DNA of 46,969 nucleotides from a virus. Its lineage: Duplodnaviria > Heunggongvirae > Uroviricota > Caudoviricetes. A program made the position numbers and the translations under genes. The notes beneath the pieces were generated by a model, which worked only from the letters and a program-made list of their open reading frames with translations, ran no database searches and had not been told where the DNA came from. Within the stretch, counting starts at the first letter, position 1; every line of letters begins with the position of its first letter. The stretch lies in the IMG/VR virus record IMGVR_UViG_3300045988_152627; one strand, 5' to 3'. Shown piece by piece: positions 5,608-43,598 of this stretch.

Positions 5608-5815
5608 TGTTGCGTCTCCACGGAGGCAAATTGTTTACTGATATTGGCATAACCGGAGCATCAGGAACTTTAAGAATAATTCCCGCAGAAAAAAGCACCG
5701 TAAAGCGGTGCTCAGTATTAGCATCAATAAGAAGATAAGACAGGTACTCATTACCATACAACTTTAACGCGATACTATCCCATGAGTCCCCTTGAACCGT
5801 TCTATAATCATCCAA
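5597..5815 (-). CDS. Tail protein X-like (LysM-like)
   Basis: 72 aa with a LysM-like pattern (YRTVQGDSWDSIALKLYG); sits between tape measure and gpD-like. Confidence 0.55.
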   Translation of the reverse strand: MDDYRTVQGDSWDSIALKLYGNEYLSYLLIDANTEHRFTVLFSAGIILKVPDAPVMPISVNNLPPWRRNSVT

Positions 5816-8600
5816 AACTTAATCTCCGTTGTTGGAACATATGAGCACTCAATTTCTTCTCAAAATCAGAATATCCCGCATCTAATGCTCTTTTAGCTGC
5901 CGCCTCAGTTTCCTTTGGTGAACCAGCCGGAAGATTGATTACAGGTGAATAGGTTATTCCACCAGTCACAGCGTTAACGTTCTGGCGAGTTCCAGAAGTC
6001 CCGGCGGCAGATATCCCGTGAGGTGATAAATTTGATTGCCCGAACTTGGTTGCTATTGCATTCTGTAAGCTGTTATTCCTGCTAACACCTGATGCCAGAG
6101 TAGTCATTATTGCCCCCCCTGACTTTGTTAGCTGTGTGAATGGACCTTTTTTCGCGTCAGAGAACGGTAAATACTCACGTACAGAAGAAAAAACGCCTTT
6201 CACTTCATTAATTAAAGCATTTGCTTTTGATTTTATCCCAGTGATTAACGTCTCAATTATTTTTGCACCTGACTCACTCCAGTTTATTCCAGATAAATAA
6301 GCCGTTACAGATTGGAATGCTCTTATAAAGAGTCCAACTGGTGAAAAACGCATAAAAACAGACACCAGTGTATCTATGATTTTCTTTCCTGTTTCACTCC
6401 AGTTAATGCCAGAAAGGTAATTTGTTGTAAGTTTAAATGCTTTAATTAAGAACGGAAGCGGAGACATCCATTTAAAAGCACTAATTAATGTACTGTAAAT
6501 TCTTACTCCTGCCGAACTCCAGTTTATGTTGGAAAGATAATCCCATGCTTTACCAAACATAGATATAATCCATCCATTGAGATCAAAGTTTAAGATAAAG
6601 TTTTTTATAGCTTCAAACGATTTAACTGTATATTCCTTAACAGAAGGCCAAACTCTGACAGCATAATCTCTGATCTTATCCCAGTTCTGATAGAGCAATA
6701 TTCCTGCGGCAACCAGCGCAGATATAGCCATCTGAATCCACCCGAAGGGTGTTAGCTTTGTCGCTACAGATAAAGCCAGCATAGCTACCCTACACGCTAT
6801 AACCACACTTTTCATGGTTAGAAACGCACCTGCCGCCATCACAATCTGAGACACAAAATTGGGGTTGTTAGCTACAAATTCACTAATTTTTGTAATCAGC
6901 GGAACCAAAACACTAAGCGCGGCATTCAAAGCAGGTTGCAAGGCCTGACCAAAACTTAATGATGCATTGCTAGCCTGAATACGTAATTGTTTCAATCGCT
7001 CCGCATTGTCTTTCGTTATGTTGGTAAAATCGCGGTCAATAACAGCACTTCCAGCACCAAGAGATGTTGCTTTGATTCTCTGGTATTCCTTCCAGTTTTG
7101 AATCATCGGACGAACAAAGTTCTGAACCTGCATATCGCCAAATAGCTCACCAAGTAACTTCTGATCTCCGTTCTTAGTCATTTTCATGACAGAATGCATT
7201 GCAGCTTCGAATGGATTCTTCCCTTTTTTCTGCGCTGTTGTGACAATTTTATATAAATCTACACCGAAATTTTTCTTTGCTTTTTTTAGTGTTTCAGGGG
7301 AAAGTATTTTCGCCAAAAAGTTGTTCATGTTATTAGCAGCCTCATCCGAAGTTGCAGCACCTTTGCGAGCTATCTGCAAAGCTGCCCCCATCGTCGCGGC
7401 GGCTTCTTTACCTCCCATTTTTAATGCCTGGAACTGGGCACCAAGCACAGGAAGATTTTTGGCCATATCTTTAAATTCAAAGTTTCCCTCTTTCCCTGCC
7501 TGAACCAGAATCCCCATTGCAGACTTCATTTGAGATGGATCAATCTTCAATGAGTCACTTAATGTAAATGATGCTTTCGAGACATCGAGGATATCAGAGC
7601 CAGTAGCTGTAGCTGTTCGCCCAATAGTTAGTAGATTCGCCTGAGCCTCTTTATAATCCTGCCCAGCAGCGACAAGAAAACCCTGAGCGGCCTGAATATC
7701 AGATGCAAACTGGTTGGTGGCCGTTCCGGTAACAAGCATCGCCTGCCCCATCGCCTGAACTTCTTCCGGCTTCATATCTGCCGTAAGACCAATCATTTTG
7801 TTTTCACGATTGAAATTTGCTGCATTGTTAGCAGCAGCAAATGCACCAGCCGCTACAGCACCAGTTTGTAATCCTGACCTTACAAGTTGACTCTTTGCCT
7901 CACCAAGATGCTCTCGCTTCAATTCACGCTGCCTTTCCAACGCGCGGTTTAACTCCTCCTGAGCACGTTTTACTGCAAGAACATTTTTCCGTGCTTCAGC
8001 CAACGCATTTTTATAGCTGTTAATTTTATCAATACGTTGTTTTTCTAATGCCCGGTTAAGTTCCTCCTGCTGTTTTTTCACTTGCTGAACATTTGCTCTG
8101 GCTAAAGCCAAAGCCGTTCTGTAGCGGTTAACCTGCTCAACGCTACGGGCCTGAGCCTCACGATTACGATCAATGCTTGCTTTAAGCTCTTTCTCTCTTG
8201 AGGCTAAAGCTCTGGCAGATGTATCAGCTCCCTGATACGCAGACTTTAAAGCGGCCAGTTCTTCACGCTGAGAACGTAGTGATGCTCGTAAATTTGATGA
8301 ATGTGTTTTTGCCTTCTCAAAGTCACGAAGCATCGCTCTGGTTGGATTGGCCGTGTTTTTTATTTGCTTCTGTAACTCTTCAACGCGAGCAGCAGCTTTA
8401 TGATATTCGAGGGCAGTCTGTCCAACCTTTACTTTTACAGATTGTAGCTTTTGAATTTCCCCATGTTCTTTCGTTAATCCAGCAAGCTCTGCATTTAATT
8501 TAGCAACAGCCTGATTAGCTGTAGTAAAACTTTTGGGGAGAGAGGCGGCAACTTTGCCGCCAATTTCAAAAGCCAGCTTAAAGTTCTTATTGCTGGCCAT
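5808..8600 (-). CDS. Tail tape measure protein
   Basis: 930 aa; N-terminal coiled-coil repeats, central hydrophobic segment; follows the frameshifted chaperone pair. Confidence 0.85.
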   Translation of the reverse strand: MASNKNFKLAFEIGGKVAASLPKSFTTANQAVAKLNAELAGLTKEHGEIQKLQSVKVKVGQTALEYHKAAARVEELQKQIKNTANPTRAMLRDFEKAKTHSSNLRASLRSQREELAALKSAYQGADTSARALASREKELKASIDRNREAQARSVEQVNRYRTALALARANVQQVKKQQEELNRALEKQRIDKINSYKNALAEARKNVLAVKRAQEELNRALERQRELKREHLGEAKSQLVRSGLQTGAVAAGAFAAANNAANFNRENKMIGLTADMKPEEVQAMGQAMLVTGTATNQFASDIQAAQGFLVAAGQDYKEAQANLLTIGRTATATGSDILDVSKASFTLSDSLKIDPSQMKSAMGILVQAGKEGNFEFKDMAKNLPVLGAQFQALKMGGKEAAATMGAALQIARKGAATSDEAANNMNNFLAKILSPETLKKAKKNFGVDLYKIVTTAQKKGKNPFEAAMHSVMKMTKNGDQKLLGELFGDMQVQNFVRPMIQNWKEYQRIKATSLGAGSAVIDRDFTNITKDNAERLKQLRIQASNASLSFGQALQPALNAALSVLVPLITKISEFVANNPNFVSQIVMAAGAFLTMKSVVIACRVAMLALSVATKLTPFGWIQMAISALVAAGILLYQNWDKIRDYAVRVWPSVKEYTVKSFEAIKNFILNFDLNGWIISMFGKAWDYLSNINWSSAGVRIYSTLISAFKWMSPLPFLIKAFKLTTNYLSGINWSETGKKIIDTLVSVFMRFSPVGLFIRAFQSVTAYLSGINWSESGAKIIETLITGIKSKANALINEVKGVFSSVREYLPFSDAKKGPFTQLTKSGGAIMTTLASGVSRNNSLQNAIATKFGQSNLSPHGISAAGTSGTRQNVNAVTGGITYSPVINLPAGSPKETEAAAKRALDAGYSDFEKKLSAHMFQQRRLSFG

Positions 8601-24859: not shown

Positions 24860-25081
24860 TTAATGCTCGCGTCGTCCGGCGACAACTTCGGATTTGTATT
24901 TCAGGTCGCCCAGCAAGAATTGCAGCTTAAGCATCTTTGCCGCCGTGTAGTTCCCTGATTCCACAACCTCTTTCATGAGGTCATAAACGGCCGCTACATC
25001 ATCAGCCAGGAACTCTTTGCGTTGCTGATCAGTCGCACGTTTGAAGGAAATACGCATTACTTTACGGTCTTGTTCTTTCAT
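24860..25081 (-). CDS. Hypothetical small protein
   Basis: 73 aa; start codon sits exactly at the end of promoter-leader cassette copy 1. Confidence 0.4.
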   Translation of the reverse strand: MKEQDRKVMRISFKRATDQQRKEFLADDVAAVYDLMKEVVESGNYTAAKMLKLQFLLGDLKYKSEVVAGRREH

Positions 25082-25200
25082 CGGGTTATCTCCGGTTTAA
25101 CCAGGGCGGGTATCGCTCGGTTTCGGGTATAACATTAGGAAATTTTTTCCCACCTGTAAAGTACTTTTTATATAATTATATAATTATATAATTCTATGAC
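25082..25200 (-). promoter_or_regulatory. Promoter-leader cassette copy 1 (TTTACA-N17-TAATGT, about 50-nt leader, RBS GGAGAT)
   Basis: Minus-strand -35 at 25155..25160 and -10 at 25132..25137; near-identical to 32154..32275 and 42784..42900; (TATATAAT)x3 upstream of the -35. Confidence 0.6.
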
Positions 25201-26083: not shown

Positions 26084-26159
26084 TTGGTGGCCCCTACCGG
26101 ATTTGAACCGATGACCGTGCGATTATGAGTCGCCTGCTCTAACCACTGAGCTAAGGGGC
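26084..26159 (-). tRNA. tRNA with CAU anticodon, most similar to tRNA-Ile2 (ileX-type); elongator Met not excluded
   Basis: 76-nt cloverleaf GGCCCCTTAGCTCAGTGGTTAGAGCAGGCGACTCATAATCGCACGGTCATCGGTTCAAATCCGGTAGGGGCCACCA: 7-bp acceptor stem, D and T arms, CTCATAA anticodon loop, encoded CCA. Confidence 0.85.
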
Positions 26160-26329
26160 CATATTTGATCTGTTTGTCTGGTGTGGCGCCGCGCACGAAA
26201 ATCCCAGCCAATAAATTCAGGATTTTTGGGCGCGGCGGCATATCAGACAAACATGGTTGATGCGTGCGCCCATGAGAAAAGCGCATAGAATGTTGTAACT
26301 ATATATTTATATAATTATAGAAATATATA

Positions 26330-26539
26330 TTACTTTCGGCAGTTGATTTCCCATGCCCTGTTATGAGCCAGAATATCTTTCTTTGTCTGGCGGTCCATAA
26401 CATCGATGTCGTGATCAGTCAGGTAGATGGGCTTTACCCAATCACAGGCGGTATCAACCACCACCGGGACGCTTCCACGACTCCCGCAGCTCGCGATCAA
26501 CATCGTCATCAGCCATATGGTTAACACTCTGCTGTACAT
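26330..26539 (-). CDS. o-spanin (Rz1-like lipoprotein)
   Basis: 69 aa with signal peptide and lipobox LIASC; partly nested in the 3' end of the Rz-like gene in another frame. Confidence 0.55.
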   Translation of the reverse strand: MYSRVLTIWLMTMLIASCGSRGSVPVVVDTACDWVKPIYLTDHDIDVMDRQTKKDILAHNRAWEINCRK

Positions 26540-27590: not shown

Positions 27591-27936
27591 AGATGCTACC
27601 GAGATCCTGGCTGTTTACGAACGTGAGGATTTTAATTGTCAATGCAGCCACAATAACCGCACCAAGCGCATCAAGAGGACGATCGTTGTAGCTGGTCCAT
27701 TTGGCAAGAAATGAGCCAACTAACGGCGCTCCAATCACTCCAACAATGAACGATGTAAAGAAATAGCCAATCAGCTTGAGACGGCTAATATTCACCGCTG
27801 TAGCAACATAGAAAACAGCGCCAGCAAATGCCCCGAATACAACGCCGTAATCAATACCAGTTGCAATACCAAAAACGCTGGCACCCATCAGGCCACCAGC
27901 AGCAACGGCCGTACCGGAAATTGGTTCTGCTGACAT
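27541..27936 (-). CDS. Putative holin
   Basis: 131 aa with multiple Gly/Ala-rich TM helices; first gene after the terminator at 27950..27980. Confidence 0.5.
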   Translation of the reverse strand: MSAEPISGTAVAAGGLMGASVFGIATGIDYGVVFGAFAGAVFYVATAVNISRLKLIGYFFTSFIVGVIGAPLVGSFLAKWTSYNDRPLDALGAVIVAALTIKILTFVNSQDLGSIFGMLSRLRGGGSNGKQ

Positions 27937-28318: not shown

Positions 28319-29217
28319 TTGTCGCCTCCTTTACGAATCTGCTCCGCCCACTCTTCAAGGGATTTCTCCGCATATTCACCAGACAGGCCATCAATCGGAT
28401 GCGGTTCATTAGCCAATTCTTCTTTCGCTGACAAAATCATGCGTGTAACGTCGAAAACTTCACGCAAAGACTTATTGATAAATCCGTGATTGAACGCAGC
28501 AGCAAGACGGCTGGCGGTATAGTTAATCCCCTCGTTGCGTGCTTCCGCACGTACTTCAGCAAGGAAAGCATCGGTGGCTGGGGTTTCGACATTAGGTCGA
28601 AGCTCATAATCACAAACTCTTTCAATCCATGGTGATACTCTGTCGCATTTCCTCTTCTTGCGTTCACCGACCTTGGTTGCCTGCTGAATAATTACCCCCC
28701 AGCAAATGCTTTCGACCTCTTCGCTCCATCCATCGCAAGCATCGCCTCTATAGTCGTCAATTGCAGCCTCAGCAGCAGCGATAGCCTCCTCAGCAGTTTT
28801 GTGACACTCGAAACTAAATTCAGAGCCATATGAGAAATACATAGCCCCGGCCTTCAGTCTTGCATTCTCCGCCGCCAGAGCCGCGCAACTGGCCTCCAGC
28901 TCTGCAATGCGTTTGCTTTGTGCCTCCCGTTCATTCAGCAACGCCTGCACTACTTCTGGGTTGAAAGCTGCGATATAACGAGCGTTGTTCTCTGCGTTTT
29001 TCTGTCCGTCAAAGCCGGTCCATTTGATAACGTCTTCACATCGTTCATCACCGGGCGTGTGCACCGCATACGTACCTGTACCCGTCGAAATAAACGCGAC
29101 CCATTCGCCCTGTGTTGCATGTTTTGCTATCTCACGTAGTGCCTGATAGTTAATTGCTGTGCTGTTAGTCATTCCAGGCCTCCAGCTCGTTCTGAATCTC
29201 CTCGTCAACCTCGTCAT
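28315..29217 (-). CDS. Hypothetical protein with central coiled coil (possibly ead/Ea22-like)
   Basis: 300 aa; ALLNEREAQSKRIAELEASCAALAAENARLKAG coiled-coil segment. Confidence 0.4.
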   Translation of the reverse strand: MTRLTRRFRTSWRPGMTNSTAINYQALREIAKHATQGEWVAFISTGTGTYAVHTPGDERCEDVIKWTGFDGQKNAENNARYIAAFNPEVVQALLNEREAQSKRIAELEASCAALAAENARLKAGAMYFSYGSEFSFECHKTAEEAIAAAEAAIDDYRGDACDGWSEEVESICWGVIIQQATKVGERKKRKCDRVSPWIERVCDYELRPNVETPATDAFLAEVRAEARNEGINYTASRLAAAFNHGFINKSLREVFDVTRMILSAKEELANEPHPIDGLSGEYAEKSLEEWAEQIRKGGDK

Positions 29218-29509
29218 TGGTGGCGTCTTCGTTCAGATGGTCGCGCGCCTCTTTGAGATACTGTTCACGGCGTTCGTGGTACCAGGCAGAGAACTCCGGC
29301 GACCATCCTCGATTAGCCCCCTGAAAATCTACCATCGCATTATCCTCGGCCATACGCTCGACCATGCAATCCGCGGTGTTCAGTGCAACCTCACGGATGT
29401 ACCCCCGCAGGTCGCGCTTACGCCAATACGGGCTATATTTTGAGTCGCAGCGGCCTTTAAATTCGACGGTCCAGCGACGGATGCAGCGTGCGTTAAGTGA
29501 TTTGCTCAT
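29165..29509 (-). CDS. Hypothetical protein
   Basis: 114 aa ORF overlapping its neighbours in the same operon. Confidence 0.35.
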   Translation of the reverse strand: MSKSLNARCIRRWTVEFKGRCDSKYSPYWRKRDLRGYIREVALNTADCMVERMAEDNAMVDFQGANRGWSPEFSAWYHERREQYLKEARDHLNEDATNDEVDEEIQNELEAWND

Positions 29510-30730: not shown

Positions 30731-31029
30731 GCCACAGCCCCTCTCAACGGCTTAACTTTGGCTAATAAGGTGTTAAACAACATGGAGTTAGGATTCATGC
30801 CAAATGGCAATTCCGGTTTAGCGGAGTAGTACAGGCAACCATTTATTTTCCTGGTTGTTATCTGTCCTTCGGCAACCATGCTTCTCAGTCTGCAACGCAT
30901 AGAGTTCTGCGACACACCAATGTGCTCCGCGATTACGTCCACTTTTGAACATGGGTGATCGGTCAGGAAATTAATCACATCTTGGGGGTTAATAATTTTG
31001 CGTTTCATTGTCGAGGCGTCCTTATACAT
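30727..31029 (-). CDS. Hypothetical DNA-binding protein (winged-helix-like)
   Basis: 100 aa; central segment IAEHIGVSQNSMRCRLRSMVAEGQI resembles a winged HTH. Confidence 0.4.
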   Translation of the reverse strand: MYKDASTMKRKIINPQDVINFLTDHPCSKVDVIAEHIGVSQNSMRCRLRSMVAEGQITTRKINGCLYYSAKPELPFGMNPNSMLFNTLLAKVKPLRGAVA

Positions 31030-31085
31030 TTATATAAATATATAATTCTATATACGGCGGGAGACATCCCGCCGTAGGCTTACTG

Positions 31086-32153
31086 TCAGGCTTTCAATAG
31101 CGATTCTTTCAGATATCGGGCATCAGCCAGGGCGTTTGGAGTAATCTTGCGAACCCATGCATTACGGGTTGGACTCCACTTAAAGGCGCGTGATTTAAGC
31201 AGCGAACGAATGTTTGCCTCTGGTTTGCCAGGGAAATAAAACAGGATGCGGTTATCCTCTGGATCTATCTCCATAGAAAAGCCGTCGTATTCTTCGCGCT
31301 GTGCTCCTGTTACAGACTTGACCGATTCAAGCTCCTTAATACGGCTCTGTAGTCGTTTGATTTCGGCGTTATTGTTGCTCAGTGCGTATGAAGGGAATCC
31401 GATGCGCCCACAGAAATCTCCGGCCAGTAACTCTTTGGCTTCGCTTTCTGTAAACCTGAGATCGATTAATGCAGAAAGCTGCTGTAATTGGTCTTTTTTG
31501 TATTTGCGAATGGCCTTATTTGCGGCCTTCATTTTGACGTGTGACTTCATGCAGCCTTGCAGCTTACGAAGCAACTTAAATAGCGCATCAGGATCATCAG
31601 ACGAAATTCCATTACGACCAACACCTGCGGCTTTGCTCTCGTAGTGTGATGCTTTACTTTCGCATTCAACAAACGTTTTTCTGAATAACGCATCAGCTTT
31701 AGACAAACGGCGGCGATGGCCTTTCGCGCTATAATGGTCAACTAAAATCGGCTGGCCTAACGGGATCACATCCAACAGGTCATGCGCTCGCTTATGCGCT
31801 ACCGCACCTTCTTTTCTGGCTTTTTCTGCACGAGCAATATATCGGGCAAGACGCGCGTTCTGGCGTTCCTGATAGGTGTTTACGTAATCATCTCCGCGCT
31901 GCTGCTGTTCAAGCCATGCTTTGCGCAGATCTTCTGTTACGTCCACCAGCTCCGCAGGGATACAACCAGTTTGGGCTTCATAAGAGTAACCATCCTCATA
32001 GATACGCCCATCGTCTTCAACAAAGAAAAAGGTTTCGTGCTCATCGCTTTTGACCATACGACCATTAACATGGCGTAATAGGTAGCCAGTATCAGTGCTT
32101 AACAGGCTGTTAGGGTTGTTGATCCAGTCAGAAATAATTACTTGTTTATTCAT
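31086..32153 (-). CDS. Hypothetical protein (DUF3560-like?)
   Basis: 355 aa; first gene after promoter-leader cassette copy 2; family assignment by recall only. Confidence 0.4.
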   Translation of the reverse strand: MNKQVIISDWINNPNSLLSTDTGYLLRHVNGRMVKSDEHETFFFVEDDGRIYEDGYSYEAQTGCIPAELVDVTEDLRKAWLEQQQRGDDYVNTYQERQNARLARYIARAEKARKEGAVAHKRAHDLLDVIPLGQPILVDHYSAKGHRRRLSKADALFRKTFVECESKASHYESKAAGVGRNGISSDDPDALFKLLRKLQGCMKSHVKMKAANKAIRKYKKDQLQQLSALIDLRFTESEAKELLAGDFCGRIGFPSYALSNNNAEIKRLQSRIKELESVKSVTGAQREEYDGFSMEIDPEDNRILFYFPGKPEANIRSLLKSRAFKWSPTRNAWVRKITPNALADARYLKESLLKA

Positions 32154-32275
32154 CAGATTTCTCCGGTTTAACCAGGGCGGGTATCGCTCGGTTTCGGTTA
32201 TAACCTTAGGAAATTTTTTCCCACCTGTAAAGCACTTTTTATATAAATCTATAATTATATATTTATAGATTTTCG
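32154..32275 (-). promoter_or_regulatory. Promoter-leader cassette copy 2, directly downstream of the Q-like gene
   Basis: Same sequence as copies 1 and 3 with a few substitutions (TAAGGT at the -10 position); TATAAATCTATAATTATATA motif upstream. Confidence 0.55.
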
Positions 32276-32322: not shown

Positions 32323-32700
32323 TTACTCTCTTCGCTTTTTCAAATAATCGACAACATACGCCCTGGCTTTTGCCAGCTTCCGGCGATACTGTCTGAGACT
32401 AAGAGAAAGGGCGTGGGCTTTATCAATATGCGGTGCATTTATGTCGAGGCCCCGAATCTCCCACGCCCCGTATTCAATTCGGACAACCAGCGCCGCAGTC
32501 TCATCAACTACCGTGAGGGCCGTCACCGCTCCCTCGATACTGGTTTCCAGTGAGTCATTTGGTGCGCCGCCCCCTCCGGTAAACTGGCAACGCGTAACCA
32601 TCATCATTTCTAACATCGACGCGAAACCGCTACGGGCGTTGCAGCCATTGCGCACCCACAGCGCCCATAGCTCAAACAAGCTATCCAGATCGCGTCTCAC
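32323..32700 (-). CDS. Putative late antiterminator, Q-like
   Basis: 125 aa; LFELWALWVRNG...VDETAALVVRIEYG...RRKLAKARAYVVDYL pattern recalled from small Q-type antiterminators; lies between nin-like genes and a strong promoter. Confidence 0.45.
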   Translation of the reverse strand: MRRDLDSLFELWALWVRNGCNARSGFASMLEMMMVTRCQFTGGGGAPNDSLETSIEGAVTALTVVDETAALVVRIEYGAWEIRGLDINAPHIDKAHALSLSLRQYRRKLAKARAYVVDYLKKRRE

Positions 32701-34673: not shown

Positions 34674-34847
34674 TTAACGAACTCCAATTAAAACCACGAT
34701 ATGTGGTATTAAAACCACATATCGTGAGTTTTTCAATGGGCGAAACAAAAAATAACCTTCTAATTGTGGTCCACCTCTCGTCTTACCATGTGAAAACCAC
34801 TAAATGTGGTAATGTATAAATAACCCACCATTCACGATTGATGAGAC
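34674..34847. promoter_or_regulatory. Immunity-region operator/promoter block with three CCAC-N5-GTGG-type operators
   Basis: ACCACGATATGTGGT (34693..34707), ACCACATATCGTGAG (34713..34727), ACCACTAAATGTGGT (34796..34810) between divergent repressor and Cro-like genes. Confidence 0.6.
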
Positions 34848-35504
34848 ATGAAAAGCAACGACGAGAACATCAAGAAAGAAATAGGTCTGCGCATTCAGAC
34901 TCTACGGAAACAATCCGGCATGACTGCCGGAGATCTCCAGCAAGTCACTGGAATAGGCTTAAGCACCTTGCAGAACTATGAGGCCGGATTAAGACAACCA
35001 TCTATACCTGCCATCAAGAAAATCGCGCACGCCCTGAAAGCATCAGCGCCTTATATCGCGTGCTTAACAGATAACCCGTTCCCACCCCAGAATACTAACG
35101 CTCCTGTTATTCCTGGGCTTGTAGCTATAAAAAATGACATAGCATCGCACGCCGGAGAAAAGCCAGTGCTGGCGATAGAACAGGAGATTCTACGAAGCAA
35201 GAACATCAACCCATCGTCTCTGTCAGTTCTCCAGAGCAACGATGAGTTAATGTCACCAACAATATCCCCAGGCTCCCAAGTCCTGATTAATACAGACGAT
35301 ACAGAGATTCATGAGGGGATCTATGCCCTTGAAGACAGAAATGGCCTGGTTGTTTTGAGGCACTGTAGAGTCATACCGGGTGACAATGCTGTTATGCTGT
35401 CAACCGAAAGGGATGCTGAAATGAACACTAATCATCTGAATAACGAGGAATTTAAGCGTTATAAAGTTCTTGGCCGCGTAGTTAGTGTTGTCAACTGGTT
35501 ATGA
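34848..35504 (+). CDS. CI-like repressor (XRE HTH + S24/LexA-like C-terminal domain)
   Basis: 218 aa; HTH TAGDLQQVTGIGLSTLQNYEAG; C-terminal LexA/UmuD-like layout ending KVLGRVVSVVNWL. Confidence 0.8.
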   Translation: MKSNDENIKKEIGLRIQTLRKQSGMTAGDLQQVTGIGLSTLQNYEAGLRQPSIPAIKKIAHALKASAPYIACLTDNPFPPQNTNAPVIPGLVAIKNDIASHAGEKPVLAIEQEILRSKNINPSSLSVLQSNDELMSPTISPGSQVLINTDDTEIHEGIYALEDRNGLVVLRHCRVIPGDNAVMLSTERDAEMNTNHLNNEEFKRYKVLGRVVSVVNWL

Positions 35505-35596: not shown

Positions 35597-35971
35597 ATGG
35601 AATTACATACAGCCAATAAAAACGAAACTCTGATCACTGCTGGAATCGAAATCCAAGCGTTGAACATAGCGATTGAGTGTATGTTATGCCAAATCATTGA
35701 TAATGAGAAAGATATCGACTGGATAGAATCTATCCTTCATCTGGCATCAGAACAAAAAGTCTGCCTCAAAACGGCCTTACAATACGATGTGCCAGCGGTA
35801 TCGAAGCTGTGCCAGCCATTGATGGCATATAACAGGGCTATTACTTCTGTATGCCTCATGATTCTTGATGAAAACACCCCTCTTAGTGACCGCTCAGAAG
35901 CTGCTCTAACCCTCTCACGTAAACAGCGACAGCTAGCAAATCAACTGATATCAACGATAGCTGACCTCTGA
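35597..35971 (+). CDS. Hypothetical protein in the rex-equivalent position downstream of the repressor
   Basis: 124 aa ORF with strong RBS, followed by terminator hairpin 35976..35999. Confidence 0.45.
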   Translation: MELHTANKNETLITAGIEIQALNIAIECMLCQIIDNEKDIDWIESILHLASEQKVCLKTALQYDVPAVSKLCQPLMAYNRAITSVCLMILDENTPLSDRSEAALTLSRKQRQLANQLISTIADL

Positions 35972-36106
35972 CTGAAAGCGGGCTAACGCCCGCTTATATG
36001 ATTATAGATTTATATAATTATATAAAACGCTTTTCATCCGCCAAAAAGTTGGTTATGCTTACCTCGTTCTATAAATATAGATTTATAGAATTATATAACC
36101 AAACAC

Positions 36107-36775
36107 ATGGAGTCTCGACAAATGACTATCTCTGTAGGTATTTTCAACGGAAAAGGCGGCGTAACCAAATCAACAATTGCCCGTGCTTTAGCAGTTGCTT
36201 ATGCAAAGGCCGGCTGGAATGTATGCCTGATCGATATGGATGTGCTTAACGGAACGGTAACGCGTTGGGTACAACGCAGAATGGCCAACAATATCGAACC
36301 TGCAATCGCGGCGCAGCCGTGCGGCACGCCATCACAAGTCCAGAAAATCATCGAATCAGAAGTATACGACCTGGTTATCGTTGATGGCGGTGCCTACGCA
36401 TCTGAATCAGTACCGAAGCTCTCTGAATTTCTGGATATGGTTATTTTGCCAACCAGATTCTCTACCGATGACCTAGAAACCACCGTTAACACAGCTCACG
36501 GCATCGTTAAAAAGGGTGTACCAATCAAGAAAATTTGCATGGTGTTTTCCGGCGCGGCTGAAAACGAAGCTGACTATATTGAAGCCCAAGAGTACCTGGC
36601 TAATACGCCATACTTTGTTGTCGATAAGTACATTCCCCACAAGCCAGCTCTGAGCAAAGCTCAGGATAAGGGCTTAAGCCTCATTGAGTGCTCATACGTT
36701 GCGCCACGCAAAAAGGCAGACGACGTTATTCAGGGGATTATCAACCAGCTTGAGGCTCTGACTACTGCCGCGTAA
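36107..36775 (+). CDS. parA: ParA-family partition ATPase (small, type Ib)
   Basis: 222 aa with deviant Walker A NGKGGVTKST and later VIVDGGA motif. Confidence 0.85.
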   Translation: MESRQMTISVGIFNGKGGVTKSTIARALAVAYAKAGWNVCLIDMDVLNGTVTRWVQRRMANNIEPAIAAQPCGTPSQVQKIIESEVYDLVIVDGGAYASESVPKLSEFLDMVILPTRFSTDDLETTVNTAHGIVKKGVPIKKICMVFSGAAENEADYIEAQEYLANTPYFVVDKYIPHKPALSKAQDKGLSLIECSYVAPRKKADDVIQGIINQLEALTTAA

Positions 36776-36818
36776 TATATAATTATAGTTTTATAGATTT
36801 ATATAAGATGGGATACAC

Positions 36819-37067
36819 ATGGCCGCACCATCAAAACCACCAAAGAAGAACAGCAAAGGCGTACCGCCATCGATCGAACAACCGCAGGTTTTCGACCCGA
36901 CTGAAACGCCAACCAGAACCAAATCAGGTGGGGCACAAATGGCGTTTAACGTCGACCCTGAATTTAAACGCGAGTACAAAACGTTCGCCAGCTCAATGGA
37001 TATGTCATTGAAAGAAGTGCTGACAAAATCTTTTGAGTTACTCAAGGCTCAATACAACCAGAAGTAA
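36819..37067 (+). CDS. ParG-like ribbon-helix-helix centromere-binding protein
   Basis: 82 aa; Pro/Lys-rich tail then RHH-like MAFNVDPEFKREYKTFASSMDMSLKEVL; directly downstream of parA. Confidence 0.6.
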   Translation: MAAPSKPPKKNSKGVPPSIEQPQVFDPTETPTRTKSGGAQMAFNVDPEFKREYKTFASSMDMSLKEVLTKSFELLKAQYNQK

Positions 37068-37279: not shown

Positions 37280-37295
37280 ATTCAACCATAAAAAA

Positions 37296-37311
37296 GGCCC
37301 CCGAAGGGGCC
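37296..37311. terminator. Bidirectional terminator hairpin GGCCCCCGAAGGGGCC
   Basis: Perfect GC-rich hairpin flanked by an A-run upstream and T-rich sequence on the opposite strand. Confidence 0.55.
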
Positions 37312-37877
37312 TAATCGCTACTTGCTGCTAATGTTTATCGTCACATTCAGAGCGTTATCAGTAATCTTCCAACCCTCCCCATGTGGCGTAAACAAAGCCC
37401 CAGTAACAACGATAAAAATACACATACAGTATTTTTTCATTGTATGGCCCTTACAGGCCGTTTCACGGCATCCCCACCGACGAAAACAACGCGAGAGCAA
37501 GCACGGCTGCTTGTGCTTGCATGTACGGCAACAGGAAATCCTCCCCTAAAGTCGGTGCCCGGGTGCGAATCGGCGGGAAGGTCCACAGGTATTTTACGAT
37601 TATTTTAAGATTAGTAATAGGAAATAAATTAAACGAAAAAACCAGTTTATTTTCACAAAATCAGTAACCTACCCACAATCTGTGAGTTTGCAGACACAAC
37701 AAGAACCACAATTTTTTGAAGCATAATAGTGGACTATTATTACCTTTTGGGTAAAATCAACTTGCTGCTTGTGCTTGCGTGGTTGTTTATACAACAACGT
37801 AATGCTGAAAGGACCGCGAATCCGATCAGCACGAAAGAACCGTCCTCAATAGGGCGGTTTTTTTGTTTCTTCACTCA

Positions 37878-38569: not shown

Positions 38570-38864
38570 TGTCTCTGTTAAAATCCCGCCGTATTGACAT
38601 GAATGCGCCATTGGTGGACACTTTCCGAGCCGTAGCAAAATCTACGGTCGGGATTAGCCTCCTGAATAACACGATGGCGCATACCGCGTTAGCGGTTTTT
38701 TTATGCGTAGAGCACTGTTACGCCCAAATTATGGTGGGTCGTACAGGGGCGGAGAAATCCGCGCCGGTTCGTCATTGTGTCCGGTAAGGCTAACCCTGTA
38801 CGGCTCACCACCATTTGATTAGCCTCGAATGGCGGTGATAGTTCCATATATTGGAGATATCACA

Positions 38865-39056
38865 ATGACAAACTTACCCCATGACTATTACGTCAACCTC
38901 GTAAAGATCCTTCTCAAGAAAGCCTCATACGCCGATAAATTCCGCCTGGCTGAAATAATCGAGCGCGAAGCTATGCGCATCGCCAGCAACGATAACGCTG
39001 TTTCTGACGCAAAAATCTCCCTCGTAACCAAAGTAGTTATGGGAGGTGCAAAATGA
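38865..39056 (+). CDS. Hypothetical small protein, coupled to the antirepressor
   Basis: 63 aa from ATG 38865 (RBS GGAGAT); stop overlaps the antirepressor start. Confidence 0.35.
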   Translation: MTNLPHDYYVNLVKILLKKASYADKFRLAEIIEREAMRIASNDNAVSDAKISLVTKVVMGGAK

Positions 39057-40195
39057 AAACGCTTCCGACCGTTAACACCCTACAGCCTATCCTGCATAAC
39101 CAGATCCCCGTTATCACCACGGAGCTGCTTGCCAAACTATATGGCTGTAGCGTCGAATGTCTTCACAGAAATCACCACCGTAATAAGTCCCGGTTTACAG
39201 AAGGAAAACATTTCATAGTTGTAAAAGGTACAGATCTCCAAAGTTTGAAAATCTCTTTAAGAGATTTTCAAACCATCGCGAATAACGTTAGAAAGCTCAT
39301 CCTCTGGACCGAACGCGGGGCTGCACGTCACGCTAAAATGCTCGAAACCGATCAGGCATGGGATGTATTCGAACGGCTGGAAGACTGCTACTTCAACCAG
39401 AACGCGCAAACGGCCGCGACCGTAACCGTCTCACCAAACAATGCTCGTGAGGTTGTCGATACGCTCAACGCTAAACCAATGTATTACGTTAAGGTGTGCA
39501 ACAACGAGCCACTCACAACCTCAGCCGATGTTGCCCAAGCATTCAGCACCACAAACAATTCCATCGTTATGGCCATCGATGCGTTACGTATTCCTCGCAC
39601 AGCTGCGGCGCGTCACTTCTTTAAAGAACAACGACCGCTGGAAGGAAGCGACCGCGAAATAACAATCTATCGCATGACAAAAGACGGATTTACCTTGCTC
39701 ATGGAAAGTATCGACGGTCCAGGCGTGAAGGATATCAAGCTGGCCTACATTGAAGCCTTTAACGCTATCAGCAGCGTGTTAAAGGCAGAATACGAGCGAA
39801 TGCTATACAACCGACTGTATCAGGAAACAAAGATTATCCGAACGGCAACAGAACATCATCGGCTATTAACGGAACCAAACTACCGCAAGACACTAATCAA
39901 AGAATTTGACAAGGCGACGGAGAAAACTAAAGCGGCACTAAATCTACCAACAATGACTAAAGATGATGTGATATCAGCCTTACTTCTTGATCTGCTCAGA
40001 AACGCCAGAGCACTTATCAGTTTTGACGAAAACCTGAATCCTCAGCTCAAGCTACTACCACCGACAGGCAAAGTAGTCGACCAAGCAGATCACAACAGCA
40101 TACTCAGCGTACTGGATGCAAACCTGCCAGCCAGGACACTACAGGAGCTGATAAAAATATCTGCGGATAAACTGGCCGCAGGTGCAAAACCATAA
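39053..40195 (+). CDS. Phage antirepressor (KilA-N/ORF6N-like N-terminus plus Rha-like domain)
   Basis: 380 aa; N-terminal ITTELLAKLYGCS...KHFIVVKGTDL and central TSADVAQAFSTTNNSIVMAIDAL resembling the Rha motif. Confidence 0.65.
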   Translation: MKTLPTVNTLQPILHNQIPVITTELLAKLYGCSVECLHRNHHRNKSRFTEGKHFIVVKGTDLQSLKISLRDFQTIANNVRKLILWTERGAARHAKMLETDQAWDVFERLEDCYFNQNAQTAATVTVSPNNAREVVDTLNAKPMYYVKVCNNEPLTTSADVAQAFSTTNNSIVMAIDALRIPRTAAARHFFKEQRPLEGSDREITIYRMTKDGFTLLMESIDGPGVKDIKLAYIEAFNAISSVLKAEYERMLYNRLYQETKIIRTATEHHRLLTEPNYRKTLIKEFDKATEKTKAALNLPTMTKDDVISALLLDLLRNARALISFDENLNPQLKLLPPTGKVVDQADHNSILSVLDANLPARTLQELIKISADKLAAGAKP

Positions 40196-42402: not shown

Positions 42403-42783
42403 TTACTTAACGAGGAATAAAAATGGTTTATCGTTCGGCGGTGTACTCGGGGCTGGCTCGCTTTTGCTCATACGATCAGTGTACCAGGCCAGCTCCTTGT
42501 CAAAGTAAGCCTGATTAAAATAGGCCATGAATGTGGTTTCAAATCCATAACGACCGCTAATACGCAGCATCTGATTGCCGTTCTCTGTTTCCAGATATAC
42601 CTGGGCACGTTCCTGATTCTCCTTCAGCCAAGTTAAAGCCTCGTCGCACGAGGACACACGATACTCATCATCGTAGCCGTCATCGATGCGGCTTGAAGGA
42701 GAACGGCAAATCACGCCAACAGAACCAGCCAGGATAGTTTGAATTTTAAGGAAAGCGTTTTTGCGGATTTTAATCATGCTCAT
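42403..42783 (-). CDS. Hypothetical protein
   Basis: 126 aa; start codon sits exactly at the end of promoter-leader cassette copy 3. Confidence 0.4.
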   Translation of the reverse strand: MSMIKIRKNAFLKIQTILAGSVGVICRSPSSRIDDGYDDEYRVSSCDEALTWLKENQERAQVYLETENGNQMLRISGRYGFETTFMAYFNQAYFDKELAWYTDRMSKSEPAPSTPPNDKPFLFLVK

Positions 42784-42900
42784 CGGGTTATCTCCGGTTT
42801 AACCAGGGCGGGTATCGCTCGGTTTCGGGTATAACATTAGGAAATTTTTTCCCACCTGTAAAGCACTTTTATATAAATCTATAATTATATAATTCTATGA
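42784..42900 (-). promoter_or_regulatory. Promoter-leader cassette copy 3 (TTTACA-N17-TAATGT)
   Basis: Minus-strand -35 at 42857..42862 and -10 at 42834..42839; about 88 bp identical to copy 1 from the ATG up to the -35. Confidence 0.6.
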
Positions 42901-42945
42901 GCACAAAAAAGCCCCTTTGCAACAGGGGCTTATCATTCGTTCTGA

Positions 42946-43245
42946 TCAGATGTTAAACGCTATTCGTTTTCCTGTGGGAAGCTCAACATCCAGGCTTAAT
43001 TTGCCTCCCATAGCTTCAACGTAACGCTTTAATGTCGCCAGCTTTAAATCATTTCCGCGCTGCTCCAGCTTTGTTACTGCTGGCTGACTAATACCCATCG
43101 CCTCAGCAACCTGTTTTTGTGATAACTGGAGTTCTTCACGCATCATCTGCAAGCCGACCTCAAGAATCATCTCATCTGCCATTTCTTTAATTCGCGCCTG
43201 GCTTTCAGGTGAACGGCTGGCAATCACCTCATCTAATGTTCTCAT
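42946..43245 (-). CDS. higA: HigA-type HTH antitoxin
   Basis: 99 aa; HTH LSQKQVAEAMGISQPAVTKLEQ; downstream of and overlapping the toxin gene. Confidence 0.75.
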   Translation of the reverse strand: MRTLDEVIASRSPESQARIKEMADEMILEVGLQMMREELQLSQKQVAEAMGISQPAVTKLEQRGNDLKLATLKRYVEAMGGKLSLDVELPTGKRIAFNI

Positions 43246-43598
43246 TACTTGCTCTCCAGTGTGTTCAGATGTGCTGCAAACTCATCCTCAGCTATACGCA
43301 CCAGTTTTTCATAAAACCGTTTATCGTTACTTTTGTCTCCTGCACAAAGAACGATGGCCCGGCGAATCGGATCGAACGCATAAAAGGCTCTTATCGGACG
43401 GCCAGAAAACTGAACGCGAAGCTCTTTCATATTTTTGTACCGAGAACCTTTTACGGTATCGGCATATGGCCTGGGTAACTCAGGTCCGTAAACCTGTAGC
43501 TTTTTCAAATCAGCCAAAACCTTTTCCTGAAGAGCGTCTTCTTGCTCATTTAGCCAGTCGTCAAATCGCTGGCTAAAAAGTACCGTCCACATGCTCAA
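43245..43598 (-). CDS. higB: RelE/ParE-superfamily toxin (HigB / Gp49-like)
   Basis: 117 aa; toxin-first order with a 1-bp overlap to the antitoxin; sequence pattern typical of HigB-like toxins. Confidence 0.75.
   Translation of the reverse strand: MSMWTVLFSQRFDDWLNEQEDALQEKVLADLKKLQVYGPELPRPYADTVKGSRYKNMKELRVQFSGRPIRAFYAFDPIRRAIVLCAGDKSNDKRFYEKLVRIAEDEFAAHLNTLESK

Follow-up and report, generated by a model that had tools for sequence, protein, structure and literature searches.

What is one small intergenic element doing three times over in the same replicon, each time directly ahead of a different gene? The question is posed by the 46,969-nt caudovirus record IMGVR_UViG_3300045988_152627 ("the window" below denotes this whole stretch of DNA), a phage-plasmid of about 47 kb with an IncFII-type RepA, in which about 115 nt are common to three minus-strand copies at 25082-25200 (copy A), 32154-32271 (copy B), and 42784-42901 (copy C), set in unrelated flanks. 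Copy B lies next to a Q-like gene, and the original prediction placed it in the role of a lambdoid late promoter with its qut/pause region. We propose instead that this cassette joins a sigma-70 promoter and a standard leader to an operator array belonging to a type Ib partition system and is co-regulated with parA by a small ParG-like protein, a reading to which we would give roughly even chances of being correct.

Three near-identical copies of about 120 bp, each ending at a start codon, had been claimed, and the coordinates, a shared 71-nt core, and the ATG ends all bear this out. The core runs from TTTACA to GGAG (25090-25160, 32161-32231, and 42792-42862, with 0, 2, and 0 mismatches, respectively) and had no match in 100 dinucleotide shuffles; the wider similarity begins with an AT-rich block about 40 nt 5' of the -35 element and extends through the ATG of the downstream open reading frame (ORF), namely, 24860-25081 for copy A, 31086-32153 for copy B, and 42403-42783 for copy C. 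Read 5' to 3' on the minus strand, copy B consists of an array of four 8-bp AT-rich units of the TTATAKAW type (32240-32271) that ends 8 nt (32232-32239) before the -35 element TTTACA (32226-32231), a 17-nt spacer holding the dyad GGAAA-AAA-TTTCC (32209-32221), which abuts the -10 element TAAGGT (32203-32208), a leader hairpin, AACCG-A-GCG[AUACC]CGC-CC-UGGUU (32170-32193), and a segment (32151-32169) made up of AAACC, the Shine-Dalgarno (SD) sequence GGAG (32161-32164), a spacer, and the ATG (32153-32151) of a 355-amino-acid (aa) DUF3560 gene. The corresponding array, -35, -10, hairpin, and SD positions are 25169-25200, 25155-25160, 25132-25137, 25099-25122, and 25090-25093 in copy A and 42870-42901, 42857-42862, 42834-42839, 42801-42824, and 42792-42795 in copy C. 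The promoter had been written as TTTACA-N17-TAA(T/G)GT, which is what we find, with TAATGT in copies A and C. The conserved leader as then quoted is exact in those two copies; copy B differs, having AACCG for ACCCG as well as a 1-nt deletion and two substitutions between the SD sequence and the ATG. The leader was also put at 50 nt, which is the distance from the -10 element to the ATG; the 5' untranslated region (5'UTR) would be about 43 nt.

Is this a real promoter, and is it a strong one? In a set of 28 distinct copies from relatives, the -10 element appears as TAATGT, TAAGGT, TATGGT, TAATAT, or TAGTAT, i.e., TAnnnT with A2 and T6 always kept, and the 17-nt spacing and the position of the -35 element are kept across relatives as well (the Serratia -35 element being TTGCAG or TTGATG). 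This is the pattern expected of a real sigma-70 promoter. Strength is another matter: the -35 element matches the consensus at five of six positions, but the -10 element matches at just three, and a simple consensus scan did not list the site; the earlier word "strong" is not established. Within the spacer dyad, none of the six E. coli and Serratia copies departs from GGA-N7-TCC. Each cassette also carries, on its other strand, a divergent promoter-like sequence, TTCCCA-N18-TATAAT (TATAAA in copy B; 25147-25176 on the plus strand in copy A), which takes the array as its -10 element and would transcribe antisense into the upstream gene.

The array of four 8-bp units was overlooked in the original prediction, and it recurs at five sites outside the cassettes. 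In all, the window holds eight arrays of exactly four units, every one of them intergenic, where 100 shuffles yielded none; each spans 32 bp and is built of AT-rich units such as TTATAGAT and TTATATAA. Three lie in the cassettes, three bracket or follow parA, and two stand upstream of other genes. The parA control region (35995-36099, plus strand) comprises an array (35995-36026), a promoter, TTTTCA (36031-36036)-N17-TATGCT (36054-36059), and a second array (36068-36099); parA itself (36107-36775, plus strand) encodes a 222-aa Walker-type ATPase that matches Pfam CbiA/ParA/MipZ and is called "ParA family protein" by the Prokaryotic Genome Annotation Pipeline (PGAP) in a relative. A third array (36776-36807, plus strand) separates parA from the gene for the 82-aa ParG-like protein (36819-37067, plus strand), the proposed binder of all eight arrays. 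The two remaining arrays have no cassette promoter: one (31023-31054, minus strand) is directly upstream of a MarR-like gene (ATG at 31008), and the other (26300-26331, minus strand) is upstream of a tRNA gene (26088-26160).

How closely do the cassettes resemble the par locus? Their arrays match those of the par locus in unit, in length (32 bp), and in position relative to the -35 element, the gap being 4 nt at the parA promoter versus 8 nt in the cassettes. The parA control region and the cassette show weak similarity by nhmmer (E value of 0.013), and in Serratia the parA promoter reads TTTACA-N17-TAAGCT. All of the par-site arrays are present in the Salmonella and Serratia plasmids, in a fourth lineage, two arrays precede parA and a further one follows the ParG-like gene, and the order of parA and then the small ParG-like gene is kept in all four lineages. 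As a separate observation, the array and ribosome-binding region (GGACGCCTCGACAATG) before the MarR-like gene (31005-31054, minus strand) resemble those (GGAGTCTCGACAAATG) before parA (36068-36109, plus strand); judged by this resemblance, they look like a second reused, par-derived module that lacks the cassette promoter. The tRNA gene (minus strand; tRNA-Met or tRNA-Ile in relatives) sits between the lysis genes and an MT-A70 methylase gene, with the four-unit array at 26300-26331 lying about 140 nt upstream of it.

What kind of protein is encoded beside parA? An AlphaFold (AF2) model built on 46 remote homologues gives residues 41 to 80 a pLDDT of 90 to 96 and folds them as a strand and two helices, with residues 1 to 40 modeled at low confidence as an N-terminal tail. 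In Foldseek searches, the meaningful matches were all ribbon-helix-helix (RHH) proteins (StnY, CdbA, CopG, Arc, ParD, and TP228 ParG [1P94]), with TM scores normalized to the target of up to 0.87, and six of the 46 remote homologues match Pfam RHH_10. The 82-aa protein is thus predicted to have an RHH fold with a flexible N-terminal tail.

A hint of a trans-acting factor comes from a comparison among lineages. A Serratia marcescens plasmid has the same regulatory synteny and three cassettes with 65 to 71% identity to the E. coli ones. In the cassettes as well as at the par locus, E. coli and Salmonella arrays are built of TTATA(G/T)A units and Serratia arrays of TTAAA(G/T)A units; counted over whole replicons, the octamer TTATATAA occurs 16 times in E. 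coli, 13 times in Salmonella, and once in Serratia, and the octamer TTAAATAA occurs 2, 0, and 11 times, respectively. In the fourth lineage, where the ParG-like protein is 48% identical, the units at the par locus are TACATA/TATGTA. Over the same lineages, the predicted beta-strand of the protein reads QMAFNV (E. coli), QMSFNV (Salmonella), AMNFNV (Serratia), and LLTFNI (fourth lineage), with the differences at alternate, DNA-facing positions and the core-facing residues kept. Given that both unit variants are equally AT rich, the change argues for sequence-specific recognition by a single trans factor and not for UP-element activity or curvature. The ParG-like protein is the obvious candidate for this factor, and on the strength of the co-variation, we posit that it binds the arrays.

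The cassettes also undergo concerted evolution. Within a genome, cassette copies are 88 to 97% identical in E. coli and Salmonella and 77 to 90% identical in Serratia; between genomes, orthologous cassettes are 81 to 86% identical (E. coli-Salmonella) or 65 to 71% identical (E. coli-Serratia), about the same divergence as that of the flanking genes (67 to 84% and 59 to 66%, respectively). Lineage-specific substitutions are common to all copies of a genome, and thus, the copies are homogenized, via gene conversion or via co-evolution with trans factors.

Taken together, these findings suggest the following model. The array would be an operator or centromere-type site for the type Ib partition system that the plasmid itself encodes, and 8 nt 3' of it would lie a sigma-70 promoter, TTTACA-N17-TAnnnT, giving a transcript with a 5'UTR of about 43 nt that carries the hairpin and then AAACCGGAGA and ends at the start codon. 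RHH dimers of the ParG-like protein would coat the array from about -45 to -76, and this coating would set the output of the three cassette promoters together with that of parA. We speculate that the most likely effect would be repression of a promoter that is otherwise assisted by an UP element. The eight arrays may double as dispersed centromere-like sites, and concerted evolution would keep the three copies alike ahead of variable accessory genes.

Several observations weigh against this model. Support for ParG-like action on the arrays is indirect, and the co-variation of unit and beta-strand draws on only three to four lineages, the fourth being informative for the par locus only. Other proteins differ between these genomes too (e.g., a 124-aa ORF at 35597-35971, immediately upstream of the par arrays), and the co-variation therefore does not single out the ParG-like protein. 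That protein itself has no significant Pfam match, and the match of its family profile to ParG 1P94, which is in register with the RHH motif, is weak (E value of 0.88). At parA there are arrays on both sides of the promoter, whereas the cassette has an upstream array only, so that repression of the cassette could be weak or absent. Finally, the model leaves unexplained both the conservation of the leader up to the ATG and the GGA-N7-TCC dyad of the spacer.

Could the partition protein do more than this? A broader version of the model casts it as a global regulator that couples the partition state or copy number of the plasmid-prophage to the expression of accessory or establishment genes, with the promoters serving also as dispersed centromeres and the leader hairpin providing a second, posttranscriptional control point common to the three mRNAs. 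We offer this version tentatively and regard it as possible but on balance doubtful.

A competing view is that nothing regulates the cassette at all, i.e., that it is a "moron"-type module in which a constitutive promoter and a good ribosome-binding site have been spread by recombination to positions ahead of accessory genes and the arrays are just UP elements and/or centromere sites. Copy A does have the look of such a unit, in that its promoter is followed by the 73-aa gene (24860-25081, minus strand) and then by a terminator (24838-24815), and copy C, which drives the 126-aa gene (42403-42783, minus strand), is itself preceded by the terminator (42931-42909) of a HigBA-like operon. (Downstream of copy C is a palindromic hairpin that lacks a clear U-tract, and downstream of copy B are a hairpin and an array.) The genes behind the cassettes differ between lineages, encoding DUF3560, DUF1391, and 73-, 80-, 97-, 103-, and 126-aa proteins, and to this extent, the earlier idea of a portable promoter cassette survives; searches of these genes against Pfam, PHROGs, NCBIfam, and PADLOC returned DUF3560, DUF1391, and phrogs of unknown function only. 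It also fits that AT-rich sequence occupies the position of an UP element and that gene conversion can produce concerted evolution without any trans factor. Against an unregulated module stand a change from TTATA to TTAAA, equally AT rich, at all sites of a genome at once, an array that abuts the -35 element much as it does at the parA promoter, which is of the autoregulated type, and the fact that RHH partition proteins repress at such sites in TP228 and pSM19035. We consider an unregulated module unlikely, and the partition-operator model is to be preferred.

Might the functional core of the cassette instead be its leader, with the hairpin and AAACCGGAGA forming a shared RNA operator that co-regulates the three mRNAs once transcription has begun, through a translational regulator, a small RNA (sRNA) such as the isrK- or C4-like RNAs encoded nearby, or a nut/put-like antitermination signal? 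The AAACCGGAGA ribosome-binding region is invariant in all 28 variants, being followed by 7 to 8 variable nt and the ATG, at which homology stops exactly, and in Serratia the outer stem of the hairpin is kept by way of two AU-to-GC double changes. Yet the hairpin is small (-9.6 to -9.9 kcal/mol, with z scores of about -2.1 to -2.2) and its support is modest because the outer-stem changes represent a single lineage split and the apparent covariation of the inner stem depends on whether the alignment takes a 2-nt indel or a double swap, for which reason we did not count it. An isrK-like RNA is predicted to pair with the leaders of copies A and C at -37 kcal/mol, versus -25 ± 3.7 kcal/mol for shuffled leaders; we judge this targeting weak, since the pairing breaks up into runs of 5, 3, 1, and 3 bp, copy B pairs weakly, and no isrK match was found in Serratia despite its conserved leader. 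C4 and ryfA were set aside as sRNAs acting on the leader, their pairing being no better than that with shuffled leaders. A nut/put-like site was likewise discarded on inspection, for there is no boxA, no N-like gene, and no resemblance of the hairpin to boxB, nor is the hairpin followed by a U-tract. Rfam, searched at gathering thresholds in the window and two relatives, placed no family at the cassettes and found ryfA, C4, isrK, and tRNA elsewhere only. An RNA operator as the core of the element is improbable in our view, below the unregulated module.

This leaves the late promoter with its qut/pause region, at all three copies of which the Q-like protein would load onto RNA polymerase and render it terminator resistant. 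The attraction of the idea is plain. The gene just upstream of copy B (32323-32700, minus strand) encodes a 125-aa Q21-like or sigma-region-4-like protein whose best fold matches are Q21, and on the evidence of these matches, it is plausibly Q21-like; the array of copy B begins 51 nt after its stop codon, and in each of the three lineages a cassette lies after the Q-like block. Late expression would need read-through of two terminators, one after copy A (24838-24815) and the other ahead of the holin gene (27983-27956), and the region from the -10 element to the hairpin evolves in concert within genomes, as a co-evolving binding site would. The anatomy of the cassette nonetheless does not support this role. 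A Q-dependent cassette combines a Q gene and a promoter with a -10-like pause element, a terminator, and then the late genes, and Q21 binds two directly repeated 8-bp subsites that adjoin the sigma-dependent pause element (SDPE) (bioRxiv 10.1101/651190). The pause element was expected as a -10-like motif near +1 to +25, but between the -10 element and the ATG, no TAnnnT occurs in any of the 28 variants; the two lambda-like candidates, AGCGAT and GATACC, were rejected for want of the key -11A or -7T. The sole direct repeat in the cassette, ATACCCG-N10-ATACCCG, is found in E. coli copies A and C and is missing from copy B, Salmonella, and Serratia, and the repeat in the spacer is inverted, not direct. 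No terminator separates the promoter from the first gene, the leader running directly to the ATG, and the genes downstream in the window (the 73-aa gene, the DUF3560 gene, and the 126-aa gene) include none for lysis or structure. Moreover, a 147-aa ORF in Salmonella and a 60-aa ORF in Serratia intervene between the Q-like gene and the cassette, and copy C, together with two of three Serratia copies, sits beside toxin-antitoxin genes in the plasmid-maintenance region.

A complete late-promoter layout is found elsewhere. In the roughly 190-nt noncoding stretch before the holin gene (minus strand; holin ATG at 27936), there is a module at 28068-27956 with a -35 element, TTGTTT (28068-28063), a spacing of 17 nt, a -10 element, TAACGT (28045-28040), a second TAACGT (28033-28028) 6 nt after it, in the position of an SDPE, and, 20 nt ahead of the holin start, a strong intrinsic terminator (27983-27956); a spacer in the module holds the direct repeat GGTGGTAAC / GGGTGTAAC. 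The layout is kept in Salmonella (TAGTGT, 6 nt, and TAACGT) and in Serratia (TTGACA-N17-TACCTT, 6 nt, and TAACGT), and in each, a terminator and then the holin gene come next. The geometry is that of lambda PR', with TAAATT, 6 nt, and AACGAT. By its layout, then, 28068-27936 is a canonical PR'-SDPE-tR'-holin arrangement, and this site, 4.2 kb downstream of the Q-like gene, is more likely to be where the Q-like protein acts. The 125-aa protein also has a weak full-length NCBIfam match (E value of 2.5e-4) to the family of PA0613, an uncharacterized gene that immediately precedes the one for holin in the R/F-pyocin cluster of Pseudomonas, and this match hints at a shared family of late-gene regulators. 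With a complete promoter-SDPE-terminator-holin layout conserved in three genomes at the pre-holin site, a Q-dependent cassette has become very unlikely, and the likely Q-dependent late promoter moves to the pre-holin region, a point that matters for the annotation of these elements.

Identification of the arrays as CI operators was rejected, since the palindromes of the immunity region (of the ACCACATATCGTG type) are unrelated both to the arrays and to the spacer dyad. That region (34695-34830), between the gene for a CI-like repressor (34848-35504, plus strand) and the leftward early operon, contains a perfect palindrome with 13-bp arms, CACGATATGTGGT/ACCACATATCGTG, and the related ACCACATTTAGTGGT, which are probably the CI operators.

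Returning to the partition-operator model, is there precedent for it? In kind, the system is already known: the omega protein, KorB, and N15 SopB are all partition proteins with dispersed operators. TP228 ParG is an RHH protein with a flexible tail that binds 4-bp boxes separated by 4-bp AT-rich spacers, with an 8-bp period and in direct and inverted orientations; one dimer binds per box, and the protein represses parFG at the OF operator (PMC3130281). The likeness to TP228 ParF/ParG lies in the type Ib organization, an RHH protein with a tail, and 8-bp-period arrays upstream of the ATPase gene, and ParG 1P94 is among both the sequence-profile and the fold matches of the 82-aa protein. The differences are that the sequence similarity to ParG is marginal and that TP228 keeps its arrays in one cluster at the par locus (20 boxes, ACTC core), whereas here there are eight dispersed sites, three of them fused to a promoter-leader cassette. 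For omega of pSM19035, also an RHH protein, parS arrays of 7-bp repeats, direct and inverted, overlap the copS, delta, and omega promoters, and at least four contiguous repeats are required for full activity (PMC9499535). Here, too, a small RHH protein gene lies beside that of a ParA-type ATPase, partition sites would double as operators at dispersed promoters, and the number of units, exactly four in every array, compares with the omega minimum of four contiguous repeats. In pSM19035, however, a Firmicute plasmid, the period is 7 bp, the unit is WATCACW, and there are 7 to 10 repeats per site; in this enterobacterial phage-plasmid, the period is 8 bp, the units are AT only and number four per site, and array binding is proposed. 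Nor does the omega regulon show the near identity of promoters and leaders that marks the cassettes.

Other systems also bear comparison. RK2 KorB is a ParB-type global repressor, and the centromere sites of N15 adjoin phage regulatory elements and affect late expression. These sites, IR1 to IR4, are several and separate (PMC7205306). Both N15 SopB with IR1 to IR4 and KorB with its dispersed OB operators share with our model the scattering of partition-protein sites through the replicon; they differ in being helix-turn-helix proteins of the ParB family acting on palindromic sites, compared with a type Ib RHH protein, tandem 8-bp units, and a link to expression that is conjectural in the present case. 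The Q cassette of lambdoid phages of the 21 type is echoed in the Q21-like protein (by fold) just upstream of copy B and in a sigma-70 promoter with a 17-nt spacer, but the cassette lacks its SDPE, promoter-proximal terminator, and late genes, which come together at 28068-27936. Phage morons and the promoter-stem-loop (PeSL) cassettes of T4-type phages are small transcription modules that are reused before variable accessory genes and mark recombination boundaries; the cassettes here differ from them in carrying a partition operator and a conserved 5'UTR and in evolving in concert within each genome. In the literature that we searched, there is no description of the combination of 8-bp four-unit arrays, a phage-plasmid host, and near-identical promoter-leader cassettes in concerted evolution.

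Why should this matter? Phage-plasmids must reconcile plasmid maintenance with phage development, and the wiring by which they do so is poorly known outside N15 and P1. If the model is true, this widespread E. coli phage-plasmid family would extend the "partition protein as global regulator" theme of omega and KorB to an enterobacterial type Ib system, equipped with a copied and homogenized promoter-leader module, and that module would be a compact, possibly regulatable expression part. Based on the PGAP annotation of a relative and on our own scans, the genes of this phage-plasmid include those for an IncFII-type RepA, ParA, a CI-like repressor, toxin-antitoxin proteins, and lysis and myovirus structural proteins. 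The cassette is present in 74 of 5,426 complete E. coli genomes, with a median of three copies per genome, and 214 of its 217 places in those genomes are on plasmids of 47 to 49 kb (the 48.5-kb plasmid NZ_CP009073.1 of the reference strain E. coli ATCC 25922 carries three copies); plasmids of E. albertii, E. fergusonii, Salmonella, and Serratia carry it too. When species-representative genomes were scanned for the pattern, there were just two chance-like matches, which indicates that the cassette is confined to this plasmid family, and among viral contigs, only close relatives have it. Three 49-kb Yersinia myoviruses, vB_YpM_39, vB_YpM_41, and vB_YpM_44, are 99% identical to the window; our searches for literature on these three phages gave nothing, and their genes are annotated nearly all as hypothetical, as is now almost wholly the case for these elements in general.

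Other features of the window deserve mention in their own right. A toxin-antitoxin pair always precedes the maintenance-region copy of the cassette (42946-43598, minus strand, in the window and 28700-29345 in a relative), and the type of pair varies, being HigB/HigA-like in E. coli and Salmonella and HicA/HicB in Serratia. By Rfam, isrK and the C4 antisense RNA lie side by side at 38629-38815 (plus strand), with repeated target-like motifs, GATTAGCCTC, in the manner of a P1-like immI-type module; they precede a 75-aa ORF (38829-39056) and an ORF6N/Rha antirepressor-like ORF (39053-40195), and C4 is present also in the Salmonella and Serratia plasmids. A full-length Rfam match to ryfA RNA (143 bits) occupies 37290-37586 (minus strand) and ends in a strong terminator (37312-37295). 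Lastly, there are two further repeat families, one with three copies of about 110 nt at 509-918 and the other with a 45-nt unit present three times at 6259-6543; the latter is spaced at exactly 120 nt inside a 930-aa ORF (5808-8600) and is probably a tail-protein repeat.

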